A DNA stretch of 64,000 nucleotides, taken from a virus. Lineage: Duplodnaviria > Caudoviricetes. Shown in pieces: positions 1,459-54,325 of the stretch (within the stretch, counting starts at the first letter, position 1; every line of letters begins with the position of its first letter). The translations under genes and the position numbers were made by a program. The stretch spans positions 64,001 through 128,000 of IMG/VR virus record IMGVR_UViG_3300031994_000010; one strand, written 5' to 3'. The notes beneath the pieces were generated by a model. That model did no database searches. It saw only the letters and a program-made list of their open reading frames with translations, and was not told the origin of the DNA.

Positions 1459-1836
1459 ATGGGGATATATATAGGTGATAAGAGGTATGGTTTTTGTATT
1501 AGCAAAAGCAACCTTATTAAAACAGTTACACTTGACTCATCGCATGAGGAAGATAGTATAGGTAATGCAGTGTACTGGAGTACATTCCTTGAAATTCCTG
1601 TTGTTACGGATAAGACAGATAGGAATCTCTATCTTTGCGTTTTTGAGAACAATAATGCGGCCACAGCGAATTATAAGGTCGACTTCCTTCTTTATTACAT
1701 AAATGGGAATAACGGTGTTAGTTGTGCCTATATTAGAAACAACAGGAAAACTTACGGAAATAACATGGCAGATGCCATATCTCTTCATGCTTCTATAAAC
1801 ACGGTGATAAATGTCTATAAAATTCCATCAATTTAA
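1459..1836 (+). CDS. Hypothetical tail-associated protein
   Basis: 125-aa ORF in tail module. Confidence 0.6.
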   Translation: MGIYIGDKRYGFCISKSNLIKTVTLDSSHEEDSIGNAVYWSTFLEIPVVTDKTDRNLYLCVFENNNAATANYKVDFLLYYINGNNGVSCAYIRNNRKTYGNNMADAISLHASINTVINVYKIPSI

Positions 1837-1855
1837 TAAAGAAAGGATATAAGAT

Positions 1856-2350
1856 ATGCCTACAGATACTAATGTTAATAGCTTGGTTATCAACAAACTG
1901 ACAAAAGCTCAGTATGATGCCATACAAAATCCAAGTGAGACTGAACTTTACTTGGTAGAAGAAGATATAGATACTACACCTACAAGTGGTAGTAAGAATC
2001 CTGTCACAAGTGGAGGTGTATATAATGTATTGCAAGATAAAGAAAATAAAGTGGAGATTGTGGCAGCATCTGATACTACTCTTTCTGCACAAGTTGGGAA
2101 GTATTATAGGTTTGATGCAGAAGTAGGAACTTTAGCTGTTACTTTGCCTACGCCTACAGACACTACTCATCTTTCTAATGTTATTTTGTTTCTAACTACT
2201 GGAAGTACTCCTGCAATTACTTTTACATCAGCTAATGTACTTTACCAAGATGGTTATGAGATAGAAGCAGAAACTACTTATGAAATAAACTGTTTATTTA
2301 ATGGAGCTAATTGGGTGATTGCCGCAATGAAGATAGGAGGTGGAGTATGA
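1856..2350 (+). CDS. Tail-fibre-associated protein
   Basis: LTKAQYDAI..LY and DTTPTSGSKNPVTSGGVY repeats typical of phage tail fibres; beta-rich C-terminus. Confidence 0.65.
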   Translation: MPTDTNVNSLVINKLTKAQYDAIQNPSETELYLVEEDIDTTPTSGSKNPVTSGGVYNVLQDKENKVEIVAASDTTLSAQVGKYYRFDAEVGTLAVTLPTPTDTTHLSNVILFLTTGSTPAITFTSANVLYQDGYEIEAETTYEINCLFNGANWVIAAMKIGGGV

Positions 2351-6798: not shown

Positions 6799-6988
6799 CG
6801 TGAGTTGTAGTACTTGTTACTTTCCAATTATTTGGATTATAAGTAAACTTATCTGAGTAAATAATCTGTGGATAATAAGGATAAATATATGGCTGACATC
6901 CTTTAATATCTTTTAATAACTGAAGACTCTCCTCAAGAGTTAAATGTCCAGTTTTATAAGCATTTAAAATAATTTCTTCACTAGTCAT
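6785..6988 (-). CDS. Small hypothetical protein
   Basis: ORF overlapping both neighbours. Confidence 0.5.
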   Translation of the reverse strand: MTSEEIILNAYKTGHLTLEESLQLLKDIKGCQPYIYPYYPQIIYSDKFTYNPNNWKVTSTTTHDDQL

Positions 6989-7553
6989 AATTTTCTATTC
7001 TTCTAAAAATTTCATTTTCCGGGGAGTCGAAGTTTTCTACCCAAGTTCTAAAAAATACTTTACAATCTAAATCGGCATTAGCATAATCAAGAATTTCTAA
7101 TAAATTATTATCAATGCTATAATTACAATCATCAAATTTATCTATAAAAGCATAGAGTCTATTGCTAGATAAATATTTAATGTCTTCTTGCCAACCTCCC
7201 CAGTAAAGTTCTTCTATAGCTTTCCAATCCTTTTTTGATTTCGGACTAAAGGTTATTCCATCAATATTGGGTAATTTTTCAAGTTTTCTAAGATATAATA
7301 AACAAGCATATCCAGAAGTAAACACATAAATATTTTTAATATTTTCTCTACTTCTTAGAGCATTTACTATTTTATCAAGTTTTTCTCCAAGTAAAAATGG
7401 ATCTCCTCCAGTTAAACAAATTGTATTTACAGAAGAAAGCTCCTCCTCCGTAGGAAGAGGAACTTTTTCTATATCATAATTCTTATTACAACAAAGTGGA
7501 CAGTTATTTGTACACTTATTAGTAACAAATAGATGCATTGTATCTACTTTCAT
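6981..7553 (-). CDS. Radical SAM protein
   Basis: CTNNCPLC (CxxxCxxC) and LTGGDP; ends TAG immediately followed by TGA. Confidence 0.85.
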   Translation of the reverse strand: MKVDTMHLFVTNKCTNNCPLCCNKNYDIEKVPLPTEEELSSVNTICLTGGDPFLLGEKLDKIVNALRSRENIKNIYVFTSGYACLLYLRKLEKLPNIDGITFSPKSKKDWKAIEELYWGGWQEDIKYLSSNRLYAFIDKFDDCNYSIDNNLLEILDYANADLDCKVFFRTWVENFDSPENEIFRRIENYD

Positions 7554-11584: not shown

Positions 11585-12526
11585 TTAGTTAGCCACTTCC
11601 ACATTTTCCGTACATAATTCATTCCAAATTCCATATTTATCAGCTTCTTTTGCCATTAAACCTGTTAATTCTACCATATTAGGATGCGGAGCACCTGTTT
11701 TTCCAAAGTATCTCAAATCGAAGAAATGCCTCCAGTCTGACGCATATGCTGTATGAATTATTTCAGTAGCAGTACATAAAGGAAGAACTTCTCTTGCTTG
11801 TTGAGGCTGCCATCCCTTACTTATAAGATTCATATAATGATGTTCTGCAACATCTAAGGAATCTAACCATACGTTTAATTCTTCGGCCTGCTCTTTTGTA
11901 AAATAATCACCTGGTCTAACAGAAATCATAACTTCAAAATTTGGATCATTTTCTGGTTGTATTCTATAGTTTATTCCATCATACCAATAGGCATCACCTT
12001 CAGGTATGTTTAACCAACTAGGAATACAGAAAGTTACTTCTTTACCAAACTTATCCTTACTATAATTACAGTATCTAGTCGATTGCTCTGCGATACTATT
12101 TACGCGATGACGATTAAGTTCTCTAGTAACTCCAATAGATGTAACCACTCTAAAAGTATATCTCCTTTTGTGATATTCAGTTGGTTCACAGATATATTTT
12201 AAGTCTTTATCCCAATTATGTTCTTTGATAACACGTAAATTTGTAGTAATATATCTAAATCTTCTTATTTTAGAATACGGATTTAATAAATATTTGAAGA
12301 ATTTAAGTATATGCCACCATTTAATTATTAAATATACAGTACCATGCTCAAGCATAGCAAGATGATTTGACTTAATCATTCTATCAACAAATGGTTTAGC
12401 ACTATCTTCTGTTATTTTATCCGTAGATTTGTAGCAAGTCCTGCCTGCTAGCTCAATTTGTTTATAAACTCCTTCTAAGCCAGGCTGCTGTAGAAGGAGT
12501 TCTGCTTTTGGTTTAATTAGTTTCAT
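11585..12526 (-). CDS. thyX: FAD-dependent thymidylate synthase
   Basis: HLAMLEH, RELNRHR..S..EQSTRY, AREVLP, HFFDLR. Confidence 0.92.
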   Translation of the reverse strand: MKLIKPKAELLLQQPGLEGVYKQIELAGRTCYKSTDKITEDSAKPFVDRMIKSNHLAMLEHGTVYLIIKWWHILKFFKYLLNPYSKIRRFRYITTNLRVIKEHNWDKDLKYICEPTEYHKRRYTFRVVTSIGVTRELNRHRVNSIAEQSTRYCNYSKDKFGKEVTFCIPSWLNIPEGDAYWYDGINYRIQPENDPNFEVMISVRPGDYFTKEQAEELNVWLDSLDVAEHHYMNLISKGWQPQQAREVLPLCTATEIIHTAYASDWRHFFDLRYFGKTGAPHPNMVELTGLMAKEADKYGIWNELCTENVEVAN

Positions 12527-12813
12527 CTTCTAACTTTATTTTTAATCCCCCTAATACAAAACTTCCACTGACTGTATATAGTTTATCAGTAGAAGATTTC
12601 CAAGTTATCAAAAAATTTAGTTCCCAACCATTGGTCTCCATAAAATCTTCTTCTTCCCAACCTCTTTCTTCTAAAACTTTTCTTAATAAAGAGTAAGGAA
12701 CAAAATCTCCAAAATTAAATCCAATTAGTTTATTATTTTCCAAATCTGCTATAACGTTCATTACACCACACCAAGTATAATGCTTTCCATTATGCAAATC
12801 TGTTTCTATAAAT

Positions 12814-13245
12814 TTATTCATGTATATTTTCTTTAACTGTTTCTGCAATAAGTTTACCGTCTGCTGTTGGATAAATTTCTTTAATAGATTTAATTACTTT
12901 ACCCATTTCTTTCTGAATAAATCCATTAGGATATAACCCATAAATAGTATTTTGAATATCTTCTTTAGAAATCTCTGGAGGAAGTAACTCTTTAAGATAT
13001 TTATTTTGTTCTCTATACATATCTGCTAACTCTTTTCTAGAATTAGCGTCATACATAGCTATTGATTCTTCTCTTTGAGAAATTAATTTTCTGATAATTT
13101 TTATTTCTGTAGCTTCATCAATAGTAGATGGAGCATTTTTACCTGTAGCAATTAAAAGTAACTCTGATTTGATTGCTCTATAAGCCTCTTTCTTAGCACC
13201 ATTCTTCTCTAGAATAGCTTCTTTAATCAACTTGTCTATATCCAT
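12814..13245 (-). CDS. GatB/YqeY domain protein
   Basis: Helical pattern RKLISQREESIAMY..LLPP..KEMGKVI..ADGK. Confidence 0.8.
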   Translation of the reverse strand: MDIDKLIKEAILEKNGAKKEAYRAIKSELLLIATGKNAPSTIDEATEIKIIRKLISQREESIAMYDANSRKELADMYREQNKYLKELLPPEISKEDIQNTIYGLYPNGFIQKEMGKVIKSIKEIYPTADGKLIAETVKENIHE

Positions 13246-13941
13246 CTCTAAACAAATTAAATATTTTTAATTTAGATTCATCATCTTCATAAATTACATT
13301 ATCAGTTTCTGTTATAAGCATTGGTTTAATACCATATGCCATGCCATCATCTTCAAAAGTCATAGGATAAGAATCAAGTAATTCTAAATTTTCTATTATA
13401 AATTCTCCAGGAGTATTTTCTATAAACCCTAGTTTATGAAGAATTTCTCGTAAAGTTAGCGCATTAATTGGCCAACCTTGAAAATCAATTCCTATTTGTT
13501 TCATTTTTCTATAATTTCAATAGATTCAATATCTACTTGATCGGTAGTATCATAATCACTGTATTCTAAATTACCATAACCTGATTCTACTAATTCCTGT
13601 GCTTCTTCTTCAGAATCAGCTTCTACTGTGTAGCAGCAATTATACCAATACAATTCATGTGTTCTTACTCTGTACTTCATAGTTTTCTTTAATATATTTT
13701 ATAAGAGAGTCTAAATCTTCTTTATTAAACTCTATATAATCAGGATCTTTATCTAAAGCAAGCCAGAGATAATTTAAAATAGCATTTTCAATAGATTCAT
13801 CTTTTATGTCATTAAGTGATAATTCATCAAGTAAATCATCAACATCTACTTCCCAAGTACCTTCTCCTTTTAAATACCAAATTGAATAAGTACGAAGAAA
13901 ATATTCCTGATTTTCCTTATATTTAAAATTTAACTCAAATA

Positions 13942-38016: not shown

Positions 38017-38952
38017 TCATACTTTAATTACTTTTATAGGATTTAAATTAAATGAACTTGGAGTAATAGTAACTTTACCATTATCCAATAAAATATTTTT
38101 AGAGTAGGCTTCTTGTGGATAAGTAGAAATAGGAAGTTTAGTTCCCTTATTTATATAAGGATAGAAATTAGCTCCAAATGCCACATTACTAATGTTATTT
38201 TTAATAATTTCTTCTTCAAGATACTCATATACTCCATCCTCTATACCTTTAGTACTTCTACCATGAGCCATTAAAGGTAAAAGAACGTGATAGTGAATAT
38301 CTTTACCAAAGTTTTTAGCATACACTATAAAATCTTCAACAGATTTCTTATTAGAAATAATATGATGAATCATTACTTTACAGTCGCCATATTTAAGAAG
38401 ATTATAGATAGCTTTTAAAGCATTTAAACGAACTAACTCATTTCCAAAAGAAACAGCTACTCCTCCAACAAAGTTCTTTGTATATTCAAGAATTTCCTGA
38501 CACCAAGGATCAGAATAATCAGATAAGATTAAACCATTAGTAGTATAGTTGGGAACTACATCAGTTTCAAATACTGTTTGAATAAACTTAGTAAATTGTT
38601 TAGAACAAGTAGGTTCTCCAGTTGAACCAATTGCTATCTGGTATGGGCGTAAACTAGTAGAAACATTACCTCTCTTCTTAATAGGATATTGTTCCATCCA
38701 ACGTTTCCATGTTCCACAAATATCTTCAAAGTCTCTTCCACCCTTACCAGCAGATACATAACAAAATGGACACATTAAGTTACATCTTGTAGTAATTCCT
38801 ACATCATAAAACTCAGATAACTCAGGAGGAAGTTCAATGATTTCTTCATCATCTTCTCCAAGTCTTATAGTAACTAAATTATTCCAAATTGCTCTATAAT
38901 TATAGTCTTTAAGAGTACGAATCTTAGTACCCCAACTTTTAAAATCTTTCAT
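38017..38952 (-). CDS. Radical SAM protein
   Basis: CNLMCPFCY, GEPT, NYTTNG, GGVAVS. Confidence 0.88.
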   Translation of the reverse strand: MKDFKSWGTKIRTLKDYNYRAIWNNLVTIRLGEDDEEIIELPPELSEFYDVGITTRCNLMCPFCYVSAGKGGRDFEDICGTWKRWMEQYPIKKRGNVSTSLRPYQIAIGSTGEPTCSKQFTKFIQTVFETDVVPNYTTNGLILSDYSDPWCQEILEYTKNFVGGVAVSFGNELVRLNALKAIYNLLKYGDCKVMIHHIISNKKSVEDFIVYAKNFGKDIHYHVLLPLMAHGRSTKGIEDGVYEYLEEEIIKNNISNVAFGANFYPYINKGTKLPISTYPQEAYSKNILLDNGKVTITPSSFNLNPIKVIKV

Positions 38953-39257
38953 GCTTCTGTTACTAAATCAATTTTATCTATATTCCAATGTTCTCTACGA
39001 ACTAACTCTGCAGCGGCTTCTGGACAAGTAGCAGTACACCATTCTTTGTCATAGTCACCATCTTTTGTAGTAAATCGTACAATATACTTTTTCATCCTAA
39101 AGCATCGTCTAAATCACCAATTTCACCACCTAATCCTAAATTATCTGGTTCCCAATTATTTGGAATAAACCAACAATTCTTATCAGGATCAAAGTAACAC
39201 TCTTTTGGATAATCTGGATTATCCATATAATCCTGAATTTCAGGCCATTCTACTTTT

Positions 39258-39566
39258 CTATACAAATCTGTCATAATGAAAATTCATTATTACTGGTTTA
39301 TCTTTACATAATTCTTCTACTACTGCTTTATAAAGGTCTAAAAACTTATCCTTATGATAAGGGACATCAATTTTTATTGTATTGTCGTCCCTCTTATCAA
39401 ATTCACTTAGACAAAGGGTTTGCTCTCTTTCCTGTCTCCAACAGTCAAAGAACTCATATAAATCAGTGTGAATATTATCGAGAATTTCTGGATCAGTTCC
39501 AGATATAACGCAAAAAACCTCACTACTAGAATTAGTAATGAGGTCACTTATACTTTTAATTTTCAT
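39258..39566 (-). CDS. 'ITNSSSEVF'-motif protein 4
   Basis: MKIKSISDLITNSSSEVF. Confidence 0.75.
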   Translation of the reverse strand: MKIKSISDLITNSSSEVFCVISGTDPEILDNIHTDLYEFFDCWRQEREQTLCLSEFDKRDDNTIKIDVPYHKDKFLDLYKAVVEELCKDKPVIMNFHYDRFV

Positions 39567-40015
39567 CCTAGATGGTGTCTTTGAATTGATTCAATAGGTT
39601 TCTTTTTATGCTTTAAACCAGGTTCATCAGGTTTATGATTCCAATCGTAGTAAGGTAATTCTACTTCACCTAAATCTTTTGCCCAATATCCTTGAAATTT
39701 ATCTCGAAATTTCTTATTCCAATATAAATTATCAATAATACTCATTAACCAACTTGGTATAGTATTATCACTAGTAGAATGAATTAACAAATCATTCTTA
39801 TGAACATAGTAATACCACTCGTCATCAATATAAGTTTCATCAGATATTGTAGTATATAACATATCATCAATATCTTCTTCAAATAAGTCACAAATACTTT
39901 TTAAGAACTCAGGAATTTCTTGATTAATTTCATCCTGAAATTCTGGTTTAGCGTGAATTATAAATACTTCACTAGAAGAATTTGTAATTACGTCAGATAC
40001 ACTAATAATTTTCAT
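39563..40015 (-). CDS. 'ITNSSSEVF'-motif protein 3
   Basis: MKIISVSDVITNSSSEVF. Confidence 0.75.
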   Translation of the reverse strand: MKIISVSDVITNSSSEVFIIHAKPEFQDEINQEIPEFLKSICDLFEEDIDDMLYTTISDETYIDDEWYYYVHKNDLLIHSTSDNTIPSWLMSIIDNLYWNKKFRDKFQGYWAKDLGEVELPYYDWNHKPDEPGLKHKKKPIESIQRHHLG

Positions 40016-40410
40016 GCTCGATCTTTAATATATTCAATGTTATTATTAAGTAATTCATCTTCAACTAAACATATACGTGAATAACCTGAGTCTGAATCAT
40101 CATCCTCTTCAAAAATTGCTTTATCGAGAAGATCCTTCAAGAAAATTTCTAAAACAGAAGTTGCTTTGTCATTATCCAATTTACTTATCTCTTCTATAAA
40201 GTCGTAATCACTAAGAAAACTAGGAAGACATAGAGTATCTATTACATCACGAAGTTCATAATTTAAAAATTTTTCGAAAACGTTTTGCTTAGTTATAGTT
40301 TTAAAATATTTTTGACATTCTGGAGGAAGTTTATTTAAATCCTTACTATCAATAATAAAAACTTCACTTGACGAATTAGTAATTACGTCAGATACACTTA
40401 ATATTTTCAT
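40012..40410 (-). CDS. 'ITNSSSEVF'-motif protein 2
   Basis: MKILSVSDVITNSSSEVF. Confidence 0.75.
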   Translation of the reverse strand: MKILSVSDVITNSSSEVFIIDSKDLNKLPPECQKYFKTITKQNVFEKFLNYELRDVIDTLCLPSFLSDYDFIEEISKLDNDKATSVLEIFLKDLLDKAIFEEDDDSDSGYSRICLVEDELLNNNIEYIKDRA

Positions 40411-41026
40411 AATTCATAAAAGTTTTTAACCCAGATGCTTTTATTTGATCAATTACATATTTAATAAATTCTGGTTCTCTTTCAAATATGGATTCCTTAT
40501 TTAATATATCATAGGCAAAATCTGGATAAGGAATTTTATCTTCTTCGCGAGTGTCTCCTCCTAAAATAGTGCAATTCTTATATATGTAATCTCTTGTAGC
40601 ATCCTGTGCTTGGTCTGAATCCAAATATAGTAGATTTTCTATATCAGAAATATTGTATTCTTCTAACCAATCTTTTACAGTATATGAAAATTCCTTTTTA
40701 TCAAGGTCTGGATATTTTTCATAATATTCGGATACATCTTCCCAAGTTATGTCATTTTCTGGATCGTTTATCATTTCCTCCCAGTCTCCTAACATACCTT
40801 TACGTATAAACCATAAATCAGCAGCTTGAGAAATATAAAAGACAGTCCAATCACCAATATCAAAAATTCCTCCCATTCCAGAACCTCTGTCTATTTTTCC
40901 TTCATAACCATCTTTATGAATTTCCAACAAGATGTCTTTTAACTCTTTAGCTTTGTACTGAGATGTAAGAAGAAAAACTTCAGAACTACTATTAGTAATT
41001 ACATCAGATACACTTAATATTTTCAT
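40388..41026 (-). CDS. 'ITNSSSEVF'-motif protein 1
   Basis: MKILSVSDVITNSSSEVF. Confidence 0.75.
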   Translation of the reverse strand: MKILSVSDVITNSSSEVFLLTSQYKAKELKDILLEIHKDGYEGKIDRGSGMGGIFDIGDWTVFYISQAADLWFIRKGMLGDWEEMINDPENDITWEDVSEYYEKYPDLDKKEFSYTVKDWLEEYNISDIENLLYLDSDQAQDATRDYIYKNCTILGGDTREEDKIPYPDFAYDILNKESIFEREPEFIKYVIDQIKASGLKTFMNYENIKCI

Positions 41027-41237
41027 ATTTCATCTATTTCCAATAAGTCAGAAACATAAATTGCATAATTATTACACTCTTCAATAACTTCATCCCAATC
41101 AAGTCCAATCAAATCTAAATTTTCATTTAATTGTTCAAGTTTAGAACTAGCTTTATCTACTGCATTTTGATAACCAGTTGCAGTAATCTTTTTAATCTGG
41201 TTCACTTCATTTACTGTATAAGCAAATATATAAGTAT

Positions 41238-41786
41238 TCATAATATATGATTTTGTTTAGTGTACGCATCAAGTAATTGATAAAAGAAATAATCTGGAAT
41301 AATAAATACTGTATTATCTGTAGTTAATGTATTTTTCTTCCAACATAAACAGAATGGTTTAGACTTATCTGAACATTGCTCTCTAATATTGAAATAACTA
41401 GGAGTGTTTGCATAATTCTTTGCTTGAATATTCACTGGTAACTTACCTTCTACATCACAAATATCAACTTTATCTGCGTCTAGAGAACGGCTTTGTCCCG
41501 CAGAACGTTCACACCCTACATATCCAATAGCTCTAAGTTGGTCTCTTATTTGATACTCTAAATCTTTACCTTTGGTTTTAGATTTTTTAGCACGATATGA
41601 CCTCTTAGTATGTTCATCTAACCATTCACAGCTTATCCCATCTTTAGGAGTAGTATTTTTATTAGCTCTTATCTTAATTGCTTGTACACTTAATCCACTA
41701 TTTTCACTAGCTTCTTCTATAGAAGCATATTCTTCTGTACGTCCATCTTTATAAGTAAGACGTACAGATGTATTTAGCTACTTCAT
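41238..41786 (-). CDS. Holliday-junction-resolvase-like PD-(D/E)XK nuclease with TAG at codon 3 (182 aa)
   Basis: ATG AAG TAG CTA...; KGKDLEYQI...DKVDI...NIQAK; ATG overlaps primase TGA. Confidence 0.78.
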
Positions 41787-42778
41787 TTTACACGTTTTTT
41801 AATATTCTCTTTTATAAATTCAATAGTTTTATCTTTTCCAAACATCTTATAGAAATCTGATATATCCTTTGCTCCATATTTACGAGGTATCCAAAAATAA
41901 TTAAGTTCTGGATGCTCTTTTTTAATCTTATTCATATTAGATATTCCAGGTAAATCATTATCATAAAATACAACGATATGATTAAATCTAGTTTTTAAAT
42001 CTGACAACATTTTATCCGAAATAAATAAATTTTCAGAATTAGGGGCTATTGCAGCTATTCCCATACTATAAAGTACCATACAATCTTTCATAGATTTAGT
42101 AATAACTAGTAATTTACTTTTTTTAGGAAGTTGTGCATACCCTTGAACAAGTTTAGATGGAGTATTAGATAAAAATCTATAAGTGGTTCGTTTTGGAAAA
42201 TAAATTCTCCAATATTCTAATCCGTCCTTTTTTCCTTCATAATAACCAAACATCATACTATCTTTAGAAGAAGTAATAAATAAGTTACCATTTAAGAAAA
42301 TGTTTTTACAACTAAATACTTTGTATTTGTTTAGAATTTCTGGAGTTATTCCAAAACTCTTCCACCAATCTAATTCTTTCTTAGAATATTCTTTTATCTC
42401 TACTCGTATATCGGATGTACCATTATCTACAAACTTTTCAACAGTTGGAATCTTTTTAACTTTAGCTGATTTACCTGAAATAAATCCAAAATCTATAGCT
42501 ATTTGATTTAAAGCTTGATAATAGCTAAGACCGTATTTATACATTACTACAGCTACAAAGTTTCCATAAAAAGAACCATTAAAATCTTTAAAGATAAGTT
42601 CTCCAGCTTTATTTCTATAAAAGGAACAAGTAGGAGATTTGTCTTTTCTAAGAGGAGATTTAAACAATCCTTTCTTAACTGGAATGTCTAGATAATAAGT
42701 CATATAGACTTCTTCAGAATGTTTAGATAAAAGATATTCCTTAGTAATTCTGGGTTCAAAATCAAATTTAAGTTCCAT
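41783..42778 (-). CDS. DNA primase (crAss-like, Toprim)
   Basis: SPLRKD..PTCSF N-domain; ITKSMKD and YDND Toprim motifs. Confidence 0.85.
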   Translation of the reverse strand: MELKFDFEPRITKEYLLSKHSEEVYMTYYLDIPVKKGLFKSPLRKDKSPTCSFYRNKAGELIFKDFNGSFYGNFVAVVMYKYGLSYYQALNQIAIDFGFISGKSAKVKKIPTVEKFVDNGTSDIRVEIKEYSKKELDWWKSFGITPEILNKYKVFSCKNIFLNGNLFITSSKDSMMFGYYEGKKDGLEYWRIYFPKRTTYRFLSNTPSKLVQGYAQLPKKSKLLVITKSMKDCMVLYSMGIAAIAPNSENLFISDKMLSDLKTRFNHIVVFYDNDLPGISNMNKIKKEHPELNYFWIPRKYGAKDISDFYKMFGKDKTIEFIKENIKKRVK

Positions 42779-42803
42779 ATATCTTTTATTTATTAGTTGA
42801 ACC

Positions 42804-42839
42804 CAAAATTACTAAAGATTATTGAATTATAAAAGTCAA
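42804..42839 (-). promoter_or_regulatory. Putative sigmaA-type promoter upstream of primase
   Basis: TTG...TAATTTTG on - strand. Confidence 0.5.
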
Positions 42840-42846
42840 TTAATTA

Positions 42847-43551
42847 TTAATCGTTAAATAAATCATCAAAATCATCATCTCCATTAGAAGCAGAAGATCC
42901 ATCAATATCAGTAGTTATGGGTTTATGAGCTTCTGGGTCAGAGGGAGATGCAGATTCATACTTCTTCTTTTCTCCTTCTTCCCAAGAACTAAAACTAAGT
43001 TTCTTACCAAGGAAGGCAGACATAAATGCTTTACCATCTTGACCAATTGCACAGTTGGTAATACGGGCATATACTTTACCATCTTGAGTCTTTCTTCCAC
43101 AAAGTTTAAGCTGAATATCATTTTCAGCAGTAGGCATAACAGGTTTAGCTAAAAGCTTCTTAACAACTTCAATAAATTGATCGAAAGTCTTAATCTTACC
43201 AGTACTAGTTAATTCCTTAAGTTTCTCAAATCCAGCTGGATTGTAAACTCCAAGAACCTGAGCAATAAAACATTGACTTCTCTCGAAATCAGAAGGCATA
43301 GGCTTTCCATTATACTCACCACGCTCAGTAGTGGTTGGTTCAAAGATTCTCTCTTTATAAATACCATCTTCACATTCAAATGTGAAATCCCATGCTTTCC
43401 AAGAAGCACCATCTTTACGAGAACCTGTTACTGCATCAGAAACTCCACCAAATTTCACTTTCTTATAAATGTTCCAAGGCTTAAGATAATTACTTTCGGT
43501 TGGAGTAGAAATCTCAGAAAAACTTTTAAAACCTGCACTAAAATCCATCAT
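42847..43551 (-). CDS. Probable single-stranded DNA-binding protein
   Basis: Replication cluster; acidic C-terminal tail DDDFDDLFND. Confidence 0.6.
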   Translation of the reverse strand: MMDFSAGFKSFSEISTPTESNYLKPWNIYKKVKFGGVSDAVTGSRKDGASWKAWDFTFECEDGIYKERIFEPTTTERGEYNGKPMPSDFERSQCFIAQVLGVYNPAGFEKLKELTSTGKIKTFDQFIEVVKKLLAKPVMPTAENDIQLKLCGRKTQDGKVYARITNCAIGQDGKAFMSAFLGKKLSFSSWEEGEKKKYESASPSDPEAHKPITTDIDGSSASNGDDDFDDLFND

Positions 43552-43553
43552 AA

Positions 43554-44153
43554 TTAATCGTCTAAATTATCAAGAGTAAAATCCAATTCATCTACCATTT
43601 CTGTTTCTTCATCTGTTAAATTACTATTAAGTTCATCTAATTCTTCTTGAACACTAACTGCTACTGCATCATTCTCTTCTTCTACAGCAGGGTCAGCATT
43701 TCTATTCTTTAATACAAACAATCCATTAGTCTTAGGATGAATATCTAAAACAAATATGTCACCAAACTTTGCTAATTCAGTATTATTCTTTCCACCATAC
43801 CTAATAGTATGTGACTTAGTTAATAGATTACCACCTTTATCGCCAAAAGTTTCTTCTAGACCAATTACTGGATACCGTTTACGATTAATAACTTGCATCT
43901 TAATGTTAATCCTATCACCTTCTTCTACTTTCATAGCAGTGACTGCAGCTTCATTAAGAATTAACTTATTATCCTCTCTGATGAGAAGAGGAGTATCATC
44001 ATCATCCCATTCATTCTTCTTTTTCTTTCTAGTAGTCTTTGGTTTAGAAGCTTTAACTGATTCATCACCAAATTCTCTAGTATCTGTAGTAATTTCTCCA
44101 GTAGCTTCATCAAGAAACTCAGTAACTAAGGTTTGTCTAAGTATTTTAATCAT
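43554..44153 (-). CDS. Hypothetical protein with acidic tail
   Basis: ORF track. Confidence 0.6.
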   Translation of the reverse strand: MIKILRQTLVTEFLDEATGEITTDTREFGDESVKASKPKTTRKKKKNEWDDDDTPLLIREDNKLILNEAAVTAMKVEEGDRINIKMQVINRKRYPVIGLEETFGDKGGNLLTKSHTIRYGGKNNTELAKFGDIFVLDIHPKTNGLFVLKNRNADPAVEEENDAVAVSVQEELDELNSNLTDEETEMVDELDFTLDNLDD

Positions 44154-44856
44154 TTAGTGGTTCTCCATTTTCAAAAGCGTTAATAGTATCTATAACCAAT
44201 TTCATATTGGGTTCTATATACTCATCTTCAAAACAACCTGCAGTACATCTACAAGTATCATGCATTCCTCCTTTAGTTCTAAATTTATATTCAACGGATT
44301 CTCCGTCATCAGAACTAATTTTCTCAGCATAGATAATATAATTAAACAATCCGTCGATATTTACCTTACTAGTTAACATTTTACCAGTAGTAAACATACG
44401 AATTTCTGGGTCTAAATCAGAACCATCATTTACTAAGTGTGAAATAAACACTACAGTTAGGTCGTCTCTTAGAGTCATACTCATTAAAACGAAATCATAG
44501 TAGTTTTTTGCAAGTAACGTGAACTTTTCATACCCTTTCTCGCTAGCTTTAGCAAAGGTCTCTTCACTAAGTAAATAATTTACATCATCTATTACCAATA
44601 CTTTAATTTCTGGCATTTTTAAACTAACTAATTTAGCTATTTGAGTAACTTTATCAAATTTATTACTAAAATACCAATTACCAGACCAATTTCCTTCACT
44701 GTCTTTAGATAACTTTTTATAGTTCTTTCTAAATCCAGGTATTGATAACTGTTTAGGAGTACAACTAATAATAAATGTTGTCTTTGGATCTAAATACTTT
44801 AAACTGGAGCTTTTACCGCTACCACTAAATCCAGCTAATGCTATAATTTGACTCAC
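44146..44856 (-). CDS. AAA_24/Sak4-like ATPase
   Basis: GFSGSGKS, VIDD, ISH, TGKM. Confidence 0.8.
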   Translation of the reverse strand: MSQIIALAGFSGSGKSSSLKYLDPKTTFIISCTPKQLSIPGFRKNYKKLSKDSEGNWSGNWYFSNKFDKVTQIAKLVSLKMPEIKVLVIDDVNYLLSEETFAKASEKGYEKFTLLAKNYYDFVLMSMTLRDDLTVVFISHLVNDGSDLDPEIRMFTTGKMLTSKVNIDGLFNYIIYAEKISSDDGESVEYKFRTKGGMHDTCRCTAGCFEDEYIEPNMKLVIDTINAFENGEPLND

Positions 44857-45926
44857 AATGTAAATGTTAAATTATCCATTTTTTCATCTTTTTCTTCTTT
44901 AGGTTTATCTGCTTTAAATATATTATCATAGTCATAAATTTCTGTAGGCTTAGGAAGCTCTCTAAAATAGCCAGTTAGTCCATCAAAATATAAGACATCA
45001 GCAGCATCGGATTCTCCGTATCTATTCTTTAAACAAATAACAGAACGACATCTTCCGCCTAATTTTTTAATGTCATAACCCCTATAACTAGATAACTTAT
45101 CTTTAATTGGACTATAAACAGCTAAAACAGTTTCAGCATCAAAGCCTGGAACTGAACTATCCATAATATCCTCGATTCTGCTTTCCGAAAACCCTCCTTG
45201 CACGCGAGCCATGCTAGTTCCAGTACGATTTGCTTGCATAATCCATAGAAAACTACTATTAGTCCAGTTTCTAAACTTGACACACCAATCAGAGATACCA
45301 TCTATCTCCTGTTTCTTAGTAGTTCCATTTTGAGGCCGTGCAAGGTTCAAATGGTCTCCGATGAACAATATTACCTTGTCAGGGTTATTAGGCTCATAGC
45401 CGCGACTGGGATGGTCTATATCCGTAAATTTTCCTCGGTCTTTCAAGAAATTTATAACTTTAAAATAGAAACTTTTTGAAGTCATAACTCCATCATCAAA
45501 GTGCAAAATTTTACATACTTTCTCTAACCACTGTCGAGACTCTTGAACTTTTGCATAATCCTCATCGGATAATTTATAGTTCATTTCAATAGATAGAATT
45601 TGTTTAGCTCCTAACCTTATATTATAAGTCTCATAAAGATATAAACTAAGTAATTTAGCTAAAATAAATTCTTTTTTCATCTCTAAGTTAAAGAAAAGTA
45701 TTTCTAATTTATCATCTTCAAGATGTTGTTGAATTGGTTTATACACATAACTATATAAAGTAACCGTACTCTTACCTACTCCCGAAAGAGCAAACAAAAC
45801 AGTATAATTAGCTTTCTTTACTCCATCAGTTAACTTATCTAGTTTAGGTAAACCAGTACTATAACCCCAGTTTCTACCTTGTCTGCCAGTATCAATTTCA
45901 TTATAAAAAGAATCAAGAACGGTCAT
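44853..45926 (-). CDS. dnaB: DnaB-like replicative helicase
   Basis: STGLPKLD, SGVGKS, LEM, DH, QANR, KNRYG. Confidence 0.85.
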   Translation of the reverse strand: MTVLDSFYNEIDTGRQGRNWGYSTGLPKLDKLTDGVKKANYTVLFALSGVGKSTVTLYSYVYKPIQQHLEDDKLEILFFNLEMKKEFILAKLLSLYLYETYNIRLGAKQILSIEMNYKLSDEDYAKVQESRQWLEKVCKILHFDDGVMTSKSFYFKVINFLKDRGKFTDIDHPSRGYEPNNPDKVILFIGDHLNLARPQNGTTKKQEIDGISDWCVKFRNWTNSSFLWIMQANRTGTSMARVQGGFSESRIEDIMDSSVPGFDAETVLAVYSPIKDKLSSYRGYDIKKLGGRCRSVICLKNRYGESDAADVLYFDGLTGYFRELPKPTEIYDYDNIFKADKPKEEKDEKMDNLTFTL

Positions 45927-46531
45927 AAACTCCTAATGGTTTCATAGTTGATGTTTGCTAGTTTACCATCTTTAAGAGCTTGTAACTCATTCCATTTCCT
46001 ATCTATGATGAATGAGCTGAGAGACATATTAATAAAATGTACTTCATTATTCTGTTCCCATTTAATTAAGTCTATTATTTCTTTGTGTTTCTCTGGATTC
46101 CAATTAATTGACTTACTATAATACCTAAAAGCATCTTCTGGAGTATTAAACTTCTTAGATATAGAACGGATTGAAACAATTGAACCGTTAATATTAGCAA
46201 ACATTGGATAAGTTTCAAATAATTCTGAACCCATCTCAAACGATGCTTTCCAAAATGTTTTAATAACATTCTTATTTAATTCCACATCAAGAGGATTAAA
46301 TTTTTCTCCTTTGCCAGGTATTTTATAAGACTTGAGTATGACTCCTTTATTTTGAAGAGAAAGTAGAATCTCTCTAAAAGTACTTTTATTGGAATCAATC
46401 TGTAAATATCGATATAGATAATCTTTATTATCTTCGAATAGAAGTATAGTCTTTAGAACAAATAGTTCCGTTGGATTAAGTCTATACTTCTCTAAAATAA
46501 CTATGTCATCATCAATATTATAAGTGTTCAA
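45923..46531 (-). CDS. Hypothetical replication protein (HTH-like)
   Basis: Between helicases; LFETYP motif. Confidence 0.55.
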   Translation of the reverse strand: MNTYNIDDDIVILEKYRLNPTELFVLKTILLFEDNKDYLYRYLQIDSNKSTFREILLSLQNKGVILKSYKIPGKGEKFNPLDVELNKNVIKTFWKASFEMGSELFETYPMFANINGSIVSIRSISKKFNTPEDAFRYYSKSINWNPEKHKEIIDLIKWEQNNEVHFINMSLSSFIIDRKWNELQALKDGKLANINYETIRSL

Positions 46532-49604: not shown

Positions 49605-49773
49605 AATTAGTATTTAATATGAGGATACTATCTTCGATATTTTCAATCTCATGTTTCAAACTATCAGTAGGAGAGATTATTTTAGATTGTGGTTTATTAC
49701 AATAGTAAAAAATCCCTCCTACTATGAGCAAACTAATTGTTGCTAAGAGACTCCAAGTTATCGCTTTCATCAA
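49486..49773 (-). CDS. N-terminal TM coiled-coil protein (spanin-like)
   Basis: TM + coiled coil; 119-nt overlap with next gene. Confidence 0.45.
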   Translation of the reverse strand: MMKAITWSLLATISLLIVGGIFYYCNKPQSKIISPTDSLKHEIENIEDSILILNTNYEKNCSIIFNQSFAADTLFFSDYLERYNLHHNSRTVKAN

Positions 49774-50158
49774 AAATCAAATCATCATATTTGTTATAAG
49801 CATAATCCCAATTGGCTAGCTCCTGATTTAGATAGTCTATTACTAACTCAGAAATCTTTCTGCCAATCTTGTAAACTTTCCTATAAGCTTTGGCTTCTGC
49901 TATTCTCTTACCAACAATTTCATCGTAAGTGTCTCGTCCTCCGCAAACAGTTTTAGCTTCTACTTCAAAGGTATGATAACCATATCCTACTTTATGCTTA
50001 AACGCAGGCTGTGTGAAATACTCACCTAATTTATGTACCAACCGAGGACCCATAAAGTTATATACATCTGACTCTGGAACTTTAACTCCACAATAAAGTT
50101 TACAAATAGTGACATTGCCACTCTTAAAGATTTTCTTGTCTACAATTTCGATTTTCAT
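49733..50158 (-). CDS. Hypothetical phage protein
   Basis: ORF track. Confidence 0.6.
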   Translation of the reverse strand: MKIEIVDKKIFKSGNVTICKLYCGVKVPESDVYNFMGPRLVHKLGEYFTQPAFKHKVGYGYHTFEVEAKTVCGGRDTYDEIVGKRIAEAKAYRKVYKIGRKISELVIDYLNQELANWDYAYNKYDDLIFDESDNLESLSNN

Positions 50159-51198: not shown

Positions 51199-51612
51199 TT
51201 AATCCATAAATTCTTTACTAGCTGCTACAGCTAATGAATCACATAGATTATTAAAGGAGTTGGAAGCATGTCCTTCGACCCATTCAAATTCGATTTTAGT
51301 CTTAACTAATGCCTGTGCTTTAGCAAAAACTTTATCAAATTGTTCCCAAAGAGAAACATTCTTTTTACGTTTCCAACCTTTAGTAGCACATCCTATGACA
51401 TACATACTATCGGTTTTAATCGTTAAAGAATCAATTGGCTGTTTAATAGAACCTAGAGCTAATATGACTGCTCCTAATTCCATTTTATTATTTGTAACAC
51501 CTTTATATGCTTTAGAGTACCTATATAACTCTTTTTCATTTTCAGTTGCTACTAATGCCAATCCCCCTTGGTCTCTGGCGGAAGAATAACTACCATCGGT
51601 ATAAATTACCAT
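51199..51612 (-). CDS. rnhA: Ribonuclease HI
   Basis: YTDGS, TNNKMEL, TDSMYV, WVEGH, N..CD. Confidence 0.92.
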   Translation of the reverse strand: MVIYTDGSYSSARDQGGLALVATENEKELYRYSKAYKGVTNNKMELGAVILALGSIKQPIDSLTIKTDSMYVIGCATKGWKRKKNVSLWEQFDKVFAKAQALVKTKIEFEWVEGHASNSFNNLCDSLAVAASKEFMD

Positions 51613-51770
51613 TACTCGCTCATCTATGCGATTGTATCTACATTAACTGTGTCTACCAATGTATCCACAACTTCTGTAGAATCAGAATTATCTACTACGT
51701 TTTCTACTTTGTTTCCAGTACAAGCCATCATAAATAATGAGGCTACAAACACAAAAATTAACTTTTTCAT
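51612..51770 (-). CDS. Small lipoprotein (TAG read-through near C-terminus)
   Basis: MKKLIFVFVASLFMMAC lipobox; TAG 51624-51626 then TAA overlapping rnhA ATG. Confidence 0.6.
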
Positions 51771-52192
51771 TTTTTTCTCTAATTTACTATACGTTTAAGA
51801 CATTTTGTATATAAGGTATTACCTTTGCCGGCATACCCAAGATTTTCTAAAAATTTATAATAATCTCCACCCTTATACTTAGATTGAATCAATTTTTTAT
51901 AGGCCTTTACTGACTCAGCCCAGTGAGTATAGGTTCTATAGCCCCTTGCACTATTTAAACCAAAGAGATTATTCTTTACTCGGCAGATTCTTGAAGTGTA
52001 GTTGCCAGTCTCGAGTTTGGCTTGAGCTAACACTATTTCAGGAAATTTAATATCGTTTTTTATTAATTCTGCCATCAATGTACTGTCATTTAAGGTTTGA
52101 GAGTTAGCTAAGCTCACACTACCTATAAATAAGACAATACATAAAACTAATTTTTTCATCATCTACTGATATGATTTCATTAATCTGCTCAT
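51767..52192 (-). CDS. Glucosaminidase (GH73-like peptidoglycan hydrolase) with signal peptide; two in-frame TAGs
   Basis: AQAKLETG, NNLFGL, GYA; core ORF 51779-52162, extended by TAG read-through at both ends. Confidence 0.75.
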
Positions 52193-52346
52193 AAACATGG
52201 ATTCACTCCTGCTTTTATTGCTGGACCATACATTTTGCTCCAACTGTTAACATAAGCTCTTCCAATTCTCTTAACTAAACTAATTGCTCTCTTCATAATT
52301 GTTCTTAAATTTAAAGTTTAATAAATAAATAATCTGAGAGGACGGA

Positions 52347-53487: not shown

Positions 53488-53723
53488 ATAATTACATTCC
53501 ACTATCCTGTTACAAGGAGCGTCTTTACCTCTCACTCTTTAATTATCGACTTGCCTACAGTAACTTCTCCAACTTTTTAAAGGTTGGCGTTTCCTTCCTT
53601 ATATTCGTTTAATAATCTATTTTTTAATTGCCATTTATCTCTTAAATCAGAATCCCAATCAAACCATTCTGTCCATTGGATTCCATCTTTTGTCCAAAAT
53701 TGATAACGTTTCTGTACCATAAG

Positions 53724-54325
53724 TACCCCAAGCAGGACTCGAACCTGCGACCCATTGCTTAGCTTACCACACTATGTTACCATAGCCAAACAATTAAAGG
53801 AACTTTCGTGGAATTTGTATATTTATACTATATGTTCCTCTCACTTCATACATATTACTATGCACCTTCTTCGAGTTGTTTGTTGTAGTCTGGAATACAT
53901 TATTACCCTATCGAAATTCTTGCAAGTAATAACTTTTCCGTTAAAACGAGCTTTATCTGCCCTAGGAATCATTATAATTTCAACTTAGGTATCTCCTCTA
54001 TATTCTCTACACATTTATGATACTTACATATTGATTTTTACACGATAACTCCGAGTTAATTCTCAATTAAGTATGCACATAGGTTTGCAAGCTATCCACA
54101 TACGTTATAGTCAATAAAATATCAATAGTTTTCTCAATTTAGCACGGTATTATCCTTACACATTATTGGTTAGTGTTCTGTCCCTACGGTGCTGCTATAA
54201 CAGATTTCGTGTTGCAGGGTTGAGGAAAGGACTTCCACCGTTTTAGGGAGATTCTAACAAGGACTTTCGTGCCTTGTCACTCCTTTTTTTAAGGCAATTG
54301 CTCTAATCCACTGAGCTATTGGGGC
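53724..54325 (-). tRNA. tRNA-Arg(TCT), split by group I intron (exons 54325-54291 and 53762-53724)
   Basis: Joined exons give GCCCCAA..AGTGGATTA..ATTGC-CT-T^CT-AA-GCAAT..GGTTCGAGTCC..TTGGGGTA. Confidence 0.88.
53763..54290 (-). mobile_element. Group I intron (528 nt, no ORF)
   Basis: 5' exon ends in U, intron ends in G; P AAAACGGTGGAAGTCC, Q AATACCGTGCTAA, R GTAGAGAATATA, S AATGTATTCC; P3 GAATCTCC/GGAGATAC. Confidence 0.85.

Follow-up and report, generated by a model that had tools for sequence, protein, structure and literature searches.

The third codon of a nuclease gene in the replication operon of this phage is an in-frame TAG, and comparison with relatives suggests that it is probably a selected translational lock, which would tie production of the nuclease to the switch of the genetic code during infection. 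The window, i.e. the whole stretch of 64,000 nucleotides that was analysed, corresponds to bases 64001-128000 of a linear IMG/VR record of 174,440 bp (96% complete, 31.8% GC; genome G000). Positions are those of the window unless they are given for the genome or for another locus.

The nuclease gene is read on the minus strand, a detail absent from the original prediction, and starts with ATG AAG TAG CTA AAT ACA, followed by an open frame of 179 sense codons in all after the TAG and then by the TGA (Table 1). The sequence ATG-AAG-TAG-CTA, the open frame behind it and the ATGA overlap with the stop of the primase gene, in which bases 41785-41784 are shared, were all confirmed as originally described. 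The same is true for the replication neighbours, which have no internal TAG, and for the placement of the gene outside the lysis and structural genes. With translation table 11 the nuclease ORF is a 65-aa stub, and the first ATG, GTG or TTG in frame past the TAG is codon 118, which is 115 codons off. Gene callers using code 11 or block-wise codes will truncate or miss this core nuclease gene. No terminator-like site was seen on the minus strand between primase and nuclease, nor did a sigma-70 scan, ill-suited to Bacteroidota-type promoters, give a convincing internal promoter between the two genes. A primase-nuclease fusion through frameshifting was considered and rejected: a shift from the primase into the nuclease (-1) frame would not bypass the TAG, which is located in the nuclease frame.

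Table 1. Features of the nuclease locus and of the related genome regions (window positions unless stated otherwise).
Feature	Position	Strand	Description
Nuclease gene	41238..41786	-	182 codons plus TGA; single in-frame TAG is codon 3; ATG 41786-41784, AAG 41783-41781, TAG 41780-41778, TGA 41240-41238
Amber codon (codon 3), putative translational lock	41778..41780	-	5' TAG in 79/85 unique orthologues
ATGA overlap	41783..41786	-	Nuclease ATG 41786-41784 shares bases with primase TGA 41785-41783
Upstream DNA primase gene, TAG-free	41783..42778	-	331 aa; phrog_12622, E 1.4e-45; weak Toprim_2
Close-packed replication operon	38017..46531	-	DnaB-like helicase, AAA ATPase, primase, small proteins; the lock is the only internal TAG
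N-terminal DNA-binding domain, residues 1-59	41610..41786	-	Homing-endonuclease type; strand-strand-helix-helix-strand
C-terminal Hjc-like PD-(D/E)XK nuclease domain, residues 69-178	41253..41582	-	VIA-align and profile search
RNA hairpin, 11-bp perfect	41734..41768	-	Starts 9 nt past the TAG
Early genes apparently ending at TAG	6978..7553, 39240..39566, 49697..50158, 51612..51770, 51767..52243	-	Back-up TAA/TGA 1-11 codons downstream
Cys-rich ORF, 64 codons	28760..28954	-	Between NrdD-like and NrdG-like genes
tRNA-Arg(UCU) with intron	53723..54325	-	528-nt intron after U34
Split suppressor tRNA	genome 153756-154030 (L095:13756-14030), outside the window	+	ARAGORN intron search and homology to G006

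IMG/VR was scanned with two patterns, which yielded 100 usable loci with 85 unique orthologous genes, whose products have 41-70% amino acid identity to that of the window. One in-frame TAG in a short leader before the conserved LNTS strand is present in 79 of the 85 genes (~93%), far more than chance would give, and, at locus level, in about 94 of the 100 independent metagenomic loci. Counted from the first ATG, the TAG is found at codon 3 to 9 in 78 genes and at codon 20 in one (loci L013 and L018); in two genes the first ATG is upstream of the likely start (L056, M-S-TAG, codon 3; L003, M-K-N-C-N-TAG, codon 6). The offset of the TAG from the invariant Thr of the (L/T)N-T-S motif is -3 in 20 genes, -4 in 29, -5 in 26, -6 in three and +12 in one, which means that the conserved element is a leader TAG and not a residue. 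Outside the leader the orthologous genes contain only 3 TAG versus 322 CAA/CAG. At four-fold degenerate third positions the identity between the window and its relatives is 0.30-0.55 versus 0.38 expected from composition, so that the synonymous sites are saturated. This single codon can be traced across about 85 diverged genes and has been kept where the other synonymous sites have been randomised. The reassigned stop is retained in preference to its synonymous codons, as in the recoding-gated genes of the type described by Borges et al. The frequency of the 5' TAG, the saturation of synonymous sites, the rarity of TAG in the rest of the gene and its shifting position together argue for selection on the TAG itself.

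These data bear on three simpler explanations. That the TAG is a sequencing error or a unique mutation, or that the gene is a pseudogene, has next to no probability; there is a single stop and nothing more in its favour, and it is refuted by the conservation of the TAG among the orthologues and by an ORF which is intact, under purifying selection and has 30 invariant columns in the alignment.

It is also very improbable that the real gene has a downstream or non-canonical start and is merely preceded by the TAG as an ordinary stop, in which case MK* would represent a mini-ORF, either due to chance or with a regulatory role. Code-11 gene callers do produce such models, as in the case of P0072, which is annotated as 'MELNTS...' from a GTG after the TAG of L030, and 20 of 76 orthologues do have a canonical start codon (ATG, GTG or TTG) 1-3 codons past the TAG. 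In the other 56 of the 76 (74%) there is no ATG, GTG or TTG within three codons past the TAG, the nearest canonical start being 7 or more codons off, so that a downstream start of the orthologues, which the original prediction had named as a possible objection, does not apply to most of them. In the window the next canonical start would delete the whole DNA-binding domain. The codon following the TAG is CTA in the window and AAT, AAA, ACA, ACT or GAA in most orthologues, and in all TAG-bearing genes an in-frame ATG is found 2-8 codons 5' of the TAG with no TAA or TGA between the two.

The third explanation, for which we see little chance, is that the TAG is an inherited ancestral glutamine codon without any regulatory role. 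TAG is a normal glutamine codon in this phage, accounting for half of the Gln-type codons of the late genes (see below), and L031 has CAA at the lock site where its sister L030 has TAG. Against this stand the retention of the TAG in 79 of 85 genes despite saturated synonymous sites and its near absence from the rest of the gene, as well as its movement among four leader positions. In TAG-less orthologues Lys, Ala or Ile may be present at the lock site, which indicates that Gln is not required, and early genes in general do not tolerate TAG. The comparison of recoded and non-recoded relatives proposed in the original prediction gave largely the expected outcome: L031 has CAA where its sister L030 has TAG, and a relative without sense TAG has AAA at this site.

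The six genes without the TAG (L024, L027, L028, L031, L053 and L085) represent five independent changes on a FastTree tree built without the leader, and they look like sporadic losses. Three of them belong to genomes that are evidently TAG-recoded, since their portal genes carry 20 (L027, genome G001), 16 (L028, G002) and 22 TAG (L085, G004), yet the nuclease gene is TAG-less and located at the same place after the primase. The lock is strongly favoured yet dispensable, since it has disappeared from three or more TAG-recoded genomes in which synteny is preserved. In L024 the 5' end of the nuclease gene is the exact insertion site of a GIY-YIG/NUMOD homing endonuclease gene, and the leader of the nuclease is replaced. 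L053 belongs to genome G003, which has no TAG in portal or terminase large subunit (TerL) genes, and its nuclease gene has neither TAG nor TGA. G003 could not serve as a standard-code control, because its TerL gene (11767-13878, minus strand; L202) contains three in-frame TGA which all align to Trp, making this genome opal-recoded. G003 is a close relative, and amber and opal reassignment thus alternate within the clade.

Two codes are in use in this phage and its relatives. Under code 11, ORFs of 100 aa or more take up 44% of the genome, a share that rises to 85% with TAG as Gln, while reading TGA as sense gave no gain in ORF coverage of the genome. In the late blocks on the plus strand there are 599 TAG versus 605 CAA and CAG (531 and 74, respectively), TAG thus being 50% of the Gln-type codons; the blocks include the TerL gene (phrog_6681; 12 TAG) and the portal gene (phrog_6547; 25 TAG), and as many as 98 TAG are present in one late ORF. 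The portal genes of relatives contain 15-30 TAG. Of the 25 TAG positions in the portal gene, 13 are aligned to Q in G003, which has no sense TAG, compared to a background of 3.9% Q; together with the CAA of L031 at the position of the TAG of L030, this supports the reading of TAG as glutamine.

The early block on the minus strand (genome 67.8-132.9 kb) is composed of 94 ORFs with 18,385 codons, 557 of which are CAA or CAG. Here the TAG of the nuclease is the sole unavoidable TAG in any gene of at least 100 aa. The remaining TAG codons of the block belong to spurious 5' extensions, with an ATG 1-4 codons later, to gene ends with a back-up TAA or TGA 1-11 codons on, or to tiny doubtful ORFs. A TAG-free early block, in which some genes end at TAG, and TAG-rich late genes indicate that TAG behaves as a terminator in the early genes and as glutamine in the late ones. 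Across 78 loci, 907 of the 1,076 operon-strand ORFs of at least 70 aa are without TAG, and 41 of the 64 ORFs with an unavoidable interior TAG are the nuclease itself. The retention of the TAG, its mobility in the leader and its absence both elsewhere in the gene and in the surrounding 94 early ORFs are hard to explain without selection on its stop/sense duality.

Some further observations were made on the early genes. The early genes of the window that apparently end at TAG would gain short Gln-initiated tails after the code switch, and in one of them TAG and TGA stand in tandem. The primase of L005 also terminates at TAG. A small Cys-rich ORF of the window may be a second candidate for a locked gene: its ATG abuts the NrdD stop, a TAG is present at codon 10 and the next ATG is codon 24. 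No match to this ORF was obtained in Pfam, and G002 and G006 lack a homologue. A comparison of G000, G002 and G006 did not reveal further early genes sharing a conserved unavoidable 5' TAG.

A tRNA able to read TAG was not evident at first sight, since standard ARAGORN and Infernal searches of G000 detected no CUA anticodon among 14 tRNAs. Complete relatives do encode intact tRNA(CUA): genome G006 carries one at 169864-169938 (plus strand) and genome G002 two at 1831-1981 (plus strand), all with tRNA-Gln-like bodies. By BLAST the suppressor tRNA of G006 matches G000 in two halves, at 153759-153773 and 154003-154025, and a search allowing for introns located there a tRNA whose anticodon loop is interrupted by an intron of about 201 nt (Table 1). 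Assuming G as the last base of the intron and ...CUCU as the end of the 5' exon, splicing would give the loop CUCUAAA, to be compared to CUCUAAC in G006; homology and loop geometry therefore point to CUA as the anticodon of the spliced tRNA. The only TAG-reading tRNA of G000 is missed by standard tRNA finders because its anticodon loop is split by this intron, which gave no match to a group I intron in Rfam (E<=0.1). A weak 'ttag' suppressor candidate at genome position 123242-123317 was discarded due to its poor fold.

The window has a second split tRNA, the tRNA-Arg(UCU), for which ARAGORN needs the intron option and Infernal gives two weak tRNA halves. No group I intron was matched in this region using Rfam (E<=1). 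Its intron and that of the suppressor tRNA begin with the same AAAAAAAGGAG. Upstream of its suppressor tRNA, G000 has a small gene (genome 153358-153687) whose syntenic counterpart is upstream of the suppressor tRNA in G006. In addition to the tRNA(CUA), G006 has a tRNA of ochre type (anticodon UUA), which is part of its main tRNA cluster (G006:C1:141349-141421, minus strand). A match to the RAGATH-1 hammerhead ribozyme was found at L095:9803-9873 (minus strand), i.e. genome 149803-149873, with 56.1 bits versus a gathering threshold of 56.3 and an E value of 3.3e-7.

The lock would function as follows. Early in infection, with TAG read as a stop, ribosomes starting at the nuclease ATG would halt after 2-7 residues, initiation at this codon being probably coupled to termination of primase translation through the ATGA overlap. 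As long as TAG terminates, neither the nuclease nor a free DNA-binding fragment would be produced. Once the suppressor tRNA outcompetes release factor 1, the same mRNA would yield the full-length protein with Gln at the position of the TAG. Such a delay, which according to the original prediction would last until packaging, could keep a DNA-cutting and DNA-binding protein off the replication and recombination intermediates until resolution is required. The location of the TAG in a dispensable leader, outside of the fold, would make for a cheap lock which does not generate truncated products. Late suppression should be efficient, because single late ORFs contain as many as 98 TAG. Several findings count against the proposal: in the lineages with a start 1-3 codons past the TAG (20 of 76) the protein could be made without suppression, the lock is dispensable, as evident from the TAG-less nuclease genes of G001, G002 and G004 in spite of TAG recoding, the nuclease gene of the opal-recoded G003 has neither TAG nor TGA, and the nuclease activity of the protein is not certain (see below).

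An alternative function of the TAG could be that of a dose limiter or safety catch instead of a timer, where suppressor tRNA and release factor compete at the TAG and the yield of a potentially toxic nuclease stays low at all times, or where the TAG bars expression outside the full phage programme, of which the suppressor tRNA is a part. The comparative evidence for selection on the TAG applies equally to this explanation, homing endonucleases, which are classically expressed at low level, show the same 5' TAG (see below), and the loss of the lock without relocation of the gene is what would be expected of a quantitative tuning device. We nevertheless consider it unlikely, since with up to 98 TAG per late ORF late suppression would be near complete and a single codon could do little throttling, while the strict absence of TAG from the 94 early ORFs points to a period in which TAG is unreadable.

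A conserved RNA structure stimulating readthrough was also considered, given the perfect hairpin found past the TAG in the window. Its fold has a z score of -3.3, the strongest among 77 orthologues, but their median z is -0.55 and only 17% are below -2, so that a conserved element of this kind was rejected and the hairpin is probably lineage-specific and incidental.

The protein encoded by the nuclease gene has 172 homologues in the protein database and matches phrog_244 (E 1.2e-10), which is labelled 'RusA-like Holliday junction resolvase'. An AlphaFold2 model built from a 28-sequence alignment (mean pLDDT 86) has two domains. The N-terminal domain resembles the DNA-binding domains of I-HmuI (1u3e residues 114-174; VIA-align Z 7.3, Foldseek probability 1.00) and of I-TevI (Z 5.7), and thus is a NUMOD/I-HmuI-type module, known from free-standing homing endonucleases, joined to a nuclease. 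The C-terminal domain has the alpha/beta core of restriction-endonuclease-like proteins and aligns with the archaeal Hjc 1gef over 97 residues with an rmsd of 3.4 and a middling Z of 7.1; the Z scores for the Hjc/Hje structures 1ob8 and 1hh1 are 7.1 and 5.3, and that for the Hjc-like resolvase of Thermus phage 15-6 (7bgs) is 5.2. Searching the PDB with the profile of the nuclease family gave Hjc matches with E values of 0.002-0.003, in which the catalytic Glu, Asp and Lys are matched by E77, D108 and K123. With the Pfam family PF24608 (PDDEXK_15) the window protein scores 17.2 bits, below the 27-bit cut-off; the homologues P0047 and P0048 carry this domain as a precomputed annotation.

The PD-(D/E)XK resolvase motifs of the original prediction are therefore present in part. 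The second acid of Hjc is replaced by Q121 ('IQxK'), which is invariant in 28 of 28 aligned homologues, and the full E...D...E-x-K tetrad is absent. Nuclease activity is not certain because of this invariant Gln in place of a catalytic acid, a role for which the other invariant acids D103 and D111 might substitute. The designation as Holliday-junction resolvase is likewise sustained by the Hjc-like fold and weakened by the replaced catalytic residue and by the extra DNA-binding domain of homing-endonuclease type. From the model, the protein is most likely a two-domain endonuclease predicted to cut branched or specific DNA, and a resolvase is the best guess for this Hjc-like predicted enzyme.

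As to its genomic distribution, the gene does not show the sporadic occurrence of mobile homing endonucleases, being found in about 100 loci. All neighbourhoods that were inspected, i.e. those of L002-L011 and of five TAG-less loci, have it downstream of the primase. In most of them it follows directly, while in L002, L003, L009-L011 and L024 the two are separated by an inserted endonuclease gene or by one or two small genes. The divergence of the nuclease (~41-70%) is similar to that of the portal protein (52-61%). With its fixed place after the primase and this portal-like divergence, the nuclease has the behaviour of a core gene rather than that of a mobile endonuclease.

Two other early-region endonuclease genes of relatives have a 5' TAG. 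The inserted gene of L024 (L024:5331-5999, plus strand), which encodes a GIY-YIG/NUMOD3/I-HmuI-NUMOD homing endonuclease, carries three TAG (codons 5, 75 and 84), and the gene for a LAGLIDADG-like homing endonuclease at L014:3181-4185 (plus strand), also present in L015, has a TAG at codon 9. This suggests that the same design is used in other nucleases of relatives, in support of the lock. Whether a 5'-proximal amber codon is a general and positively maintained nuclease lock in this TAG-recoded clade, comprising both the core Hjc-like nuclease and the invading GIY-YIG and LAGLIDADG nucleases, we consider evenly balanced. If true, it would constitute the cleanest comparative evidence so far for stop reassignment as a gene-specific developmental timer, and it would provide a natural single-codon reporter of the moment at which the code flips.

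Several known systems are comparable. A 5'-proximal UAG confers strict dependence on a suppressor tRNA in conditional amber mutants and in engineered amber switches, which are laboratory constructs or mutations; the leader TAG described here differs from these in being natural, conserved and apparently selected. With respect to fold, the archaeal Hjc and Hje enzymes (1gef, 1hh1, 1ob8) and the resolvase of Thermus phage 15-6 (7bgs) appear to share a PD-(D/E)XK core with the predicted structure, while the 'IEVK' of Hjc is 'IQAK' here and the N-terminal I-HmuI/I-TevI-type DNA-binding domain of about 59 aa is an addition.

In phage T4 the genes for I-TevI, for I-TevII and for I-TevIII, segB, mobE and other late genes are present on early or middle polycistronic transcripts and their translation is delayed by an RNA hairpin which masks the ribosome-binding site, a block relieved on transcripts from late promoters (PMC2988022). 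The same review has a paper on gene 49 among its references for translational delay. The likeness to the present case is that a gene in an early transcription unit would have a late protein, lateness being here deduced from the sequence, and that the targets are DNA-cutting enzymes including a junction resolvase. Gene 49, which encodes endonuclease VII of T4, was reportedly recognised as translationally delayed by Barth et al. in 1988. The mechanisms are different, since in T4 a hairpin hides the ribosome-binding site, whereas here it would be the meaning of a codon that changes, and the hairpin of the window is 3' of the TAG and non-conserved.

The crAss-like phages analysed by Yutin et al. 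(PMC7886860) have reassignment confined to the late parts of their genomes and encode PD-(D/E)XK nucleases, with no mention of a lock. The closest precedent is the work of Borges et al. (bioRxiv 10.1101/2021.08.26.457843), who put forward a regulation of late and lytic genes by recoded stops, which would block premature translation, and who described a TGA-recoded group I intron endonuclease within an early gene of Agate phages; the word 'resolvase' does not occur in their text and no core replication-operon nuclease is mentioned. Common to both studies are the proposed principle of an in-frame reassigned stop that would block translation until a suppressor is active, a standard code early and a recoded one late, and a nuclease of the early region as an example. 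The idea of a TAG acting as translational gate, as put forward in the original prediction, is thus not unprecedented, while the conservation of the TAG, the few bypass starts and the TAG-free early block support a selected lock. Stop reassignment in phages has so far been argued to be a regulatory device, as opposed to a by-product, mostly from genome layout and codon-preference statistics, and the evidence of Borges et al. is a statistical preference over many codons in lysis, tail and intron-endonuclease genes. Here it is one single codon in a short dispensable leader, flexible in position and kept across saturated divergence in a syntenic core gene, and it offers a simple experimental handle on the timing of the code switch and on the cost of premature nuclease. 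The general principle is already published; new are the gene, a design that relies on a single codon of flexible position and how strong the comparative evidence is.
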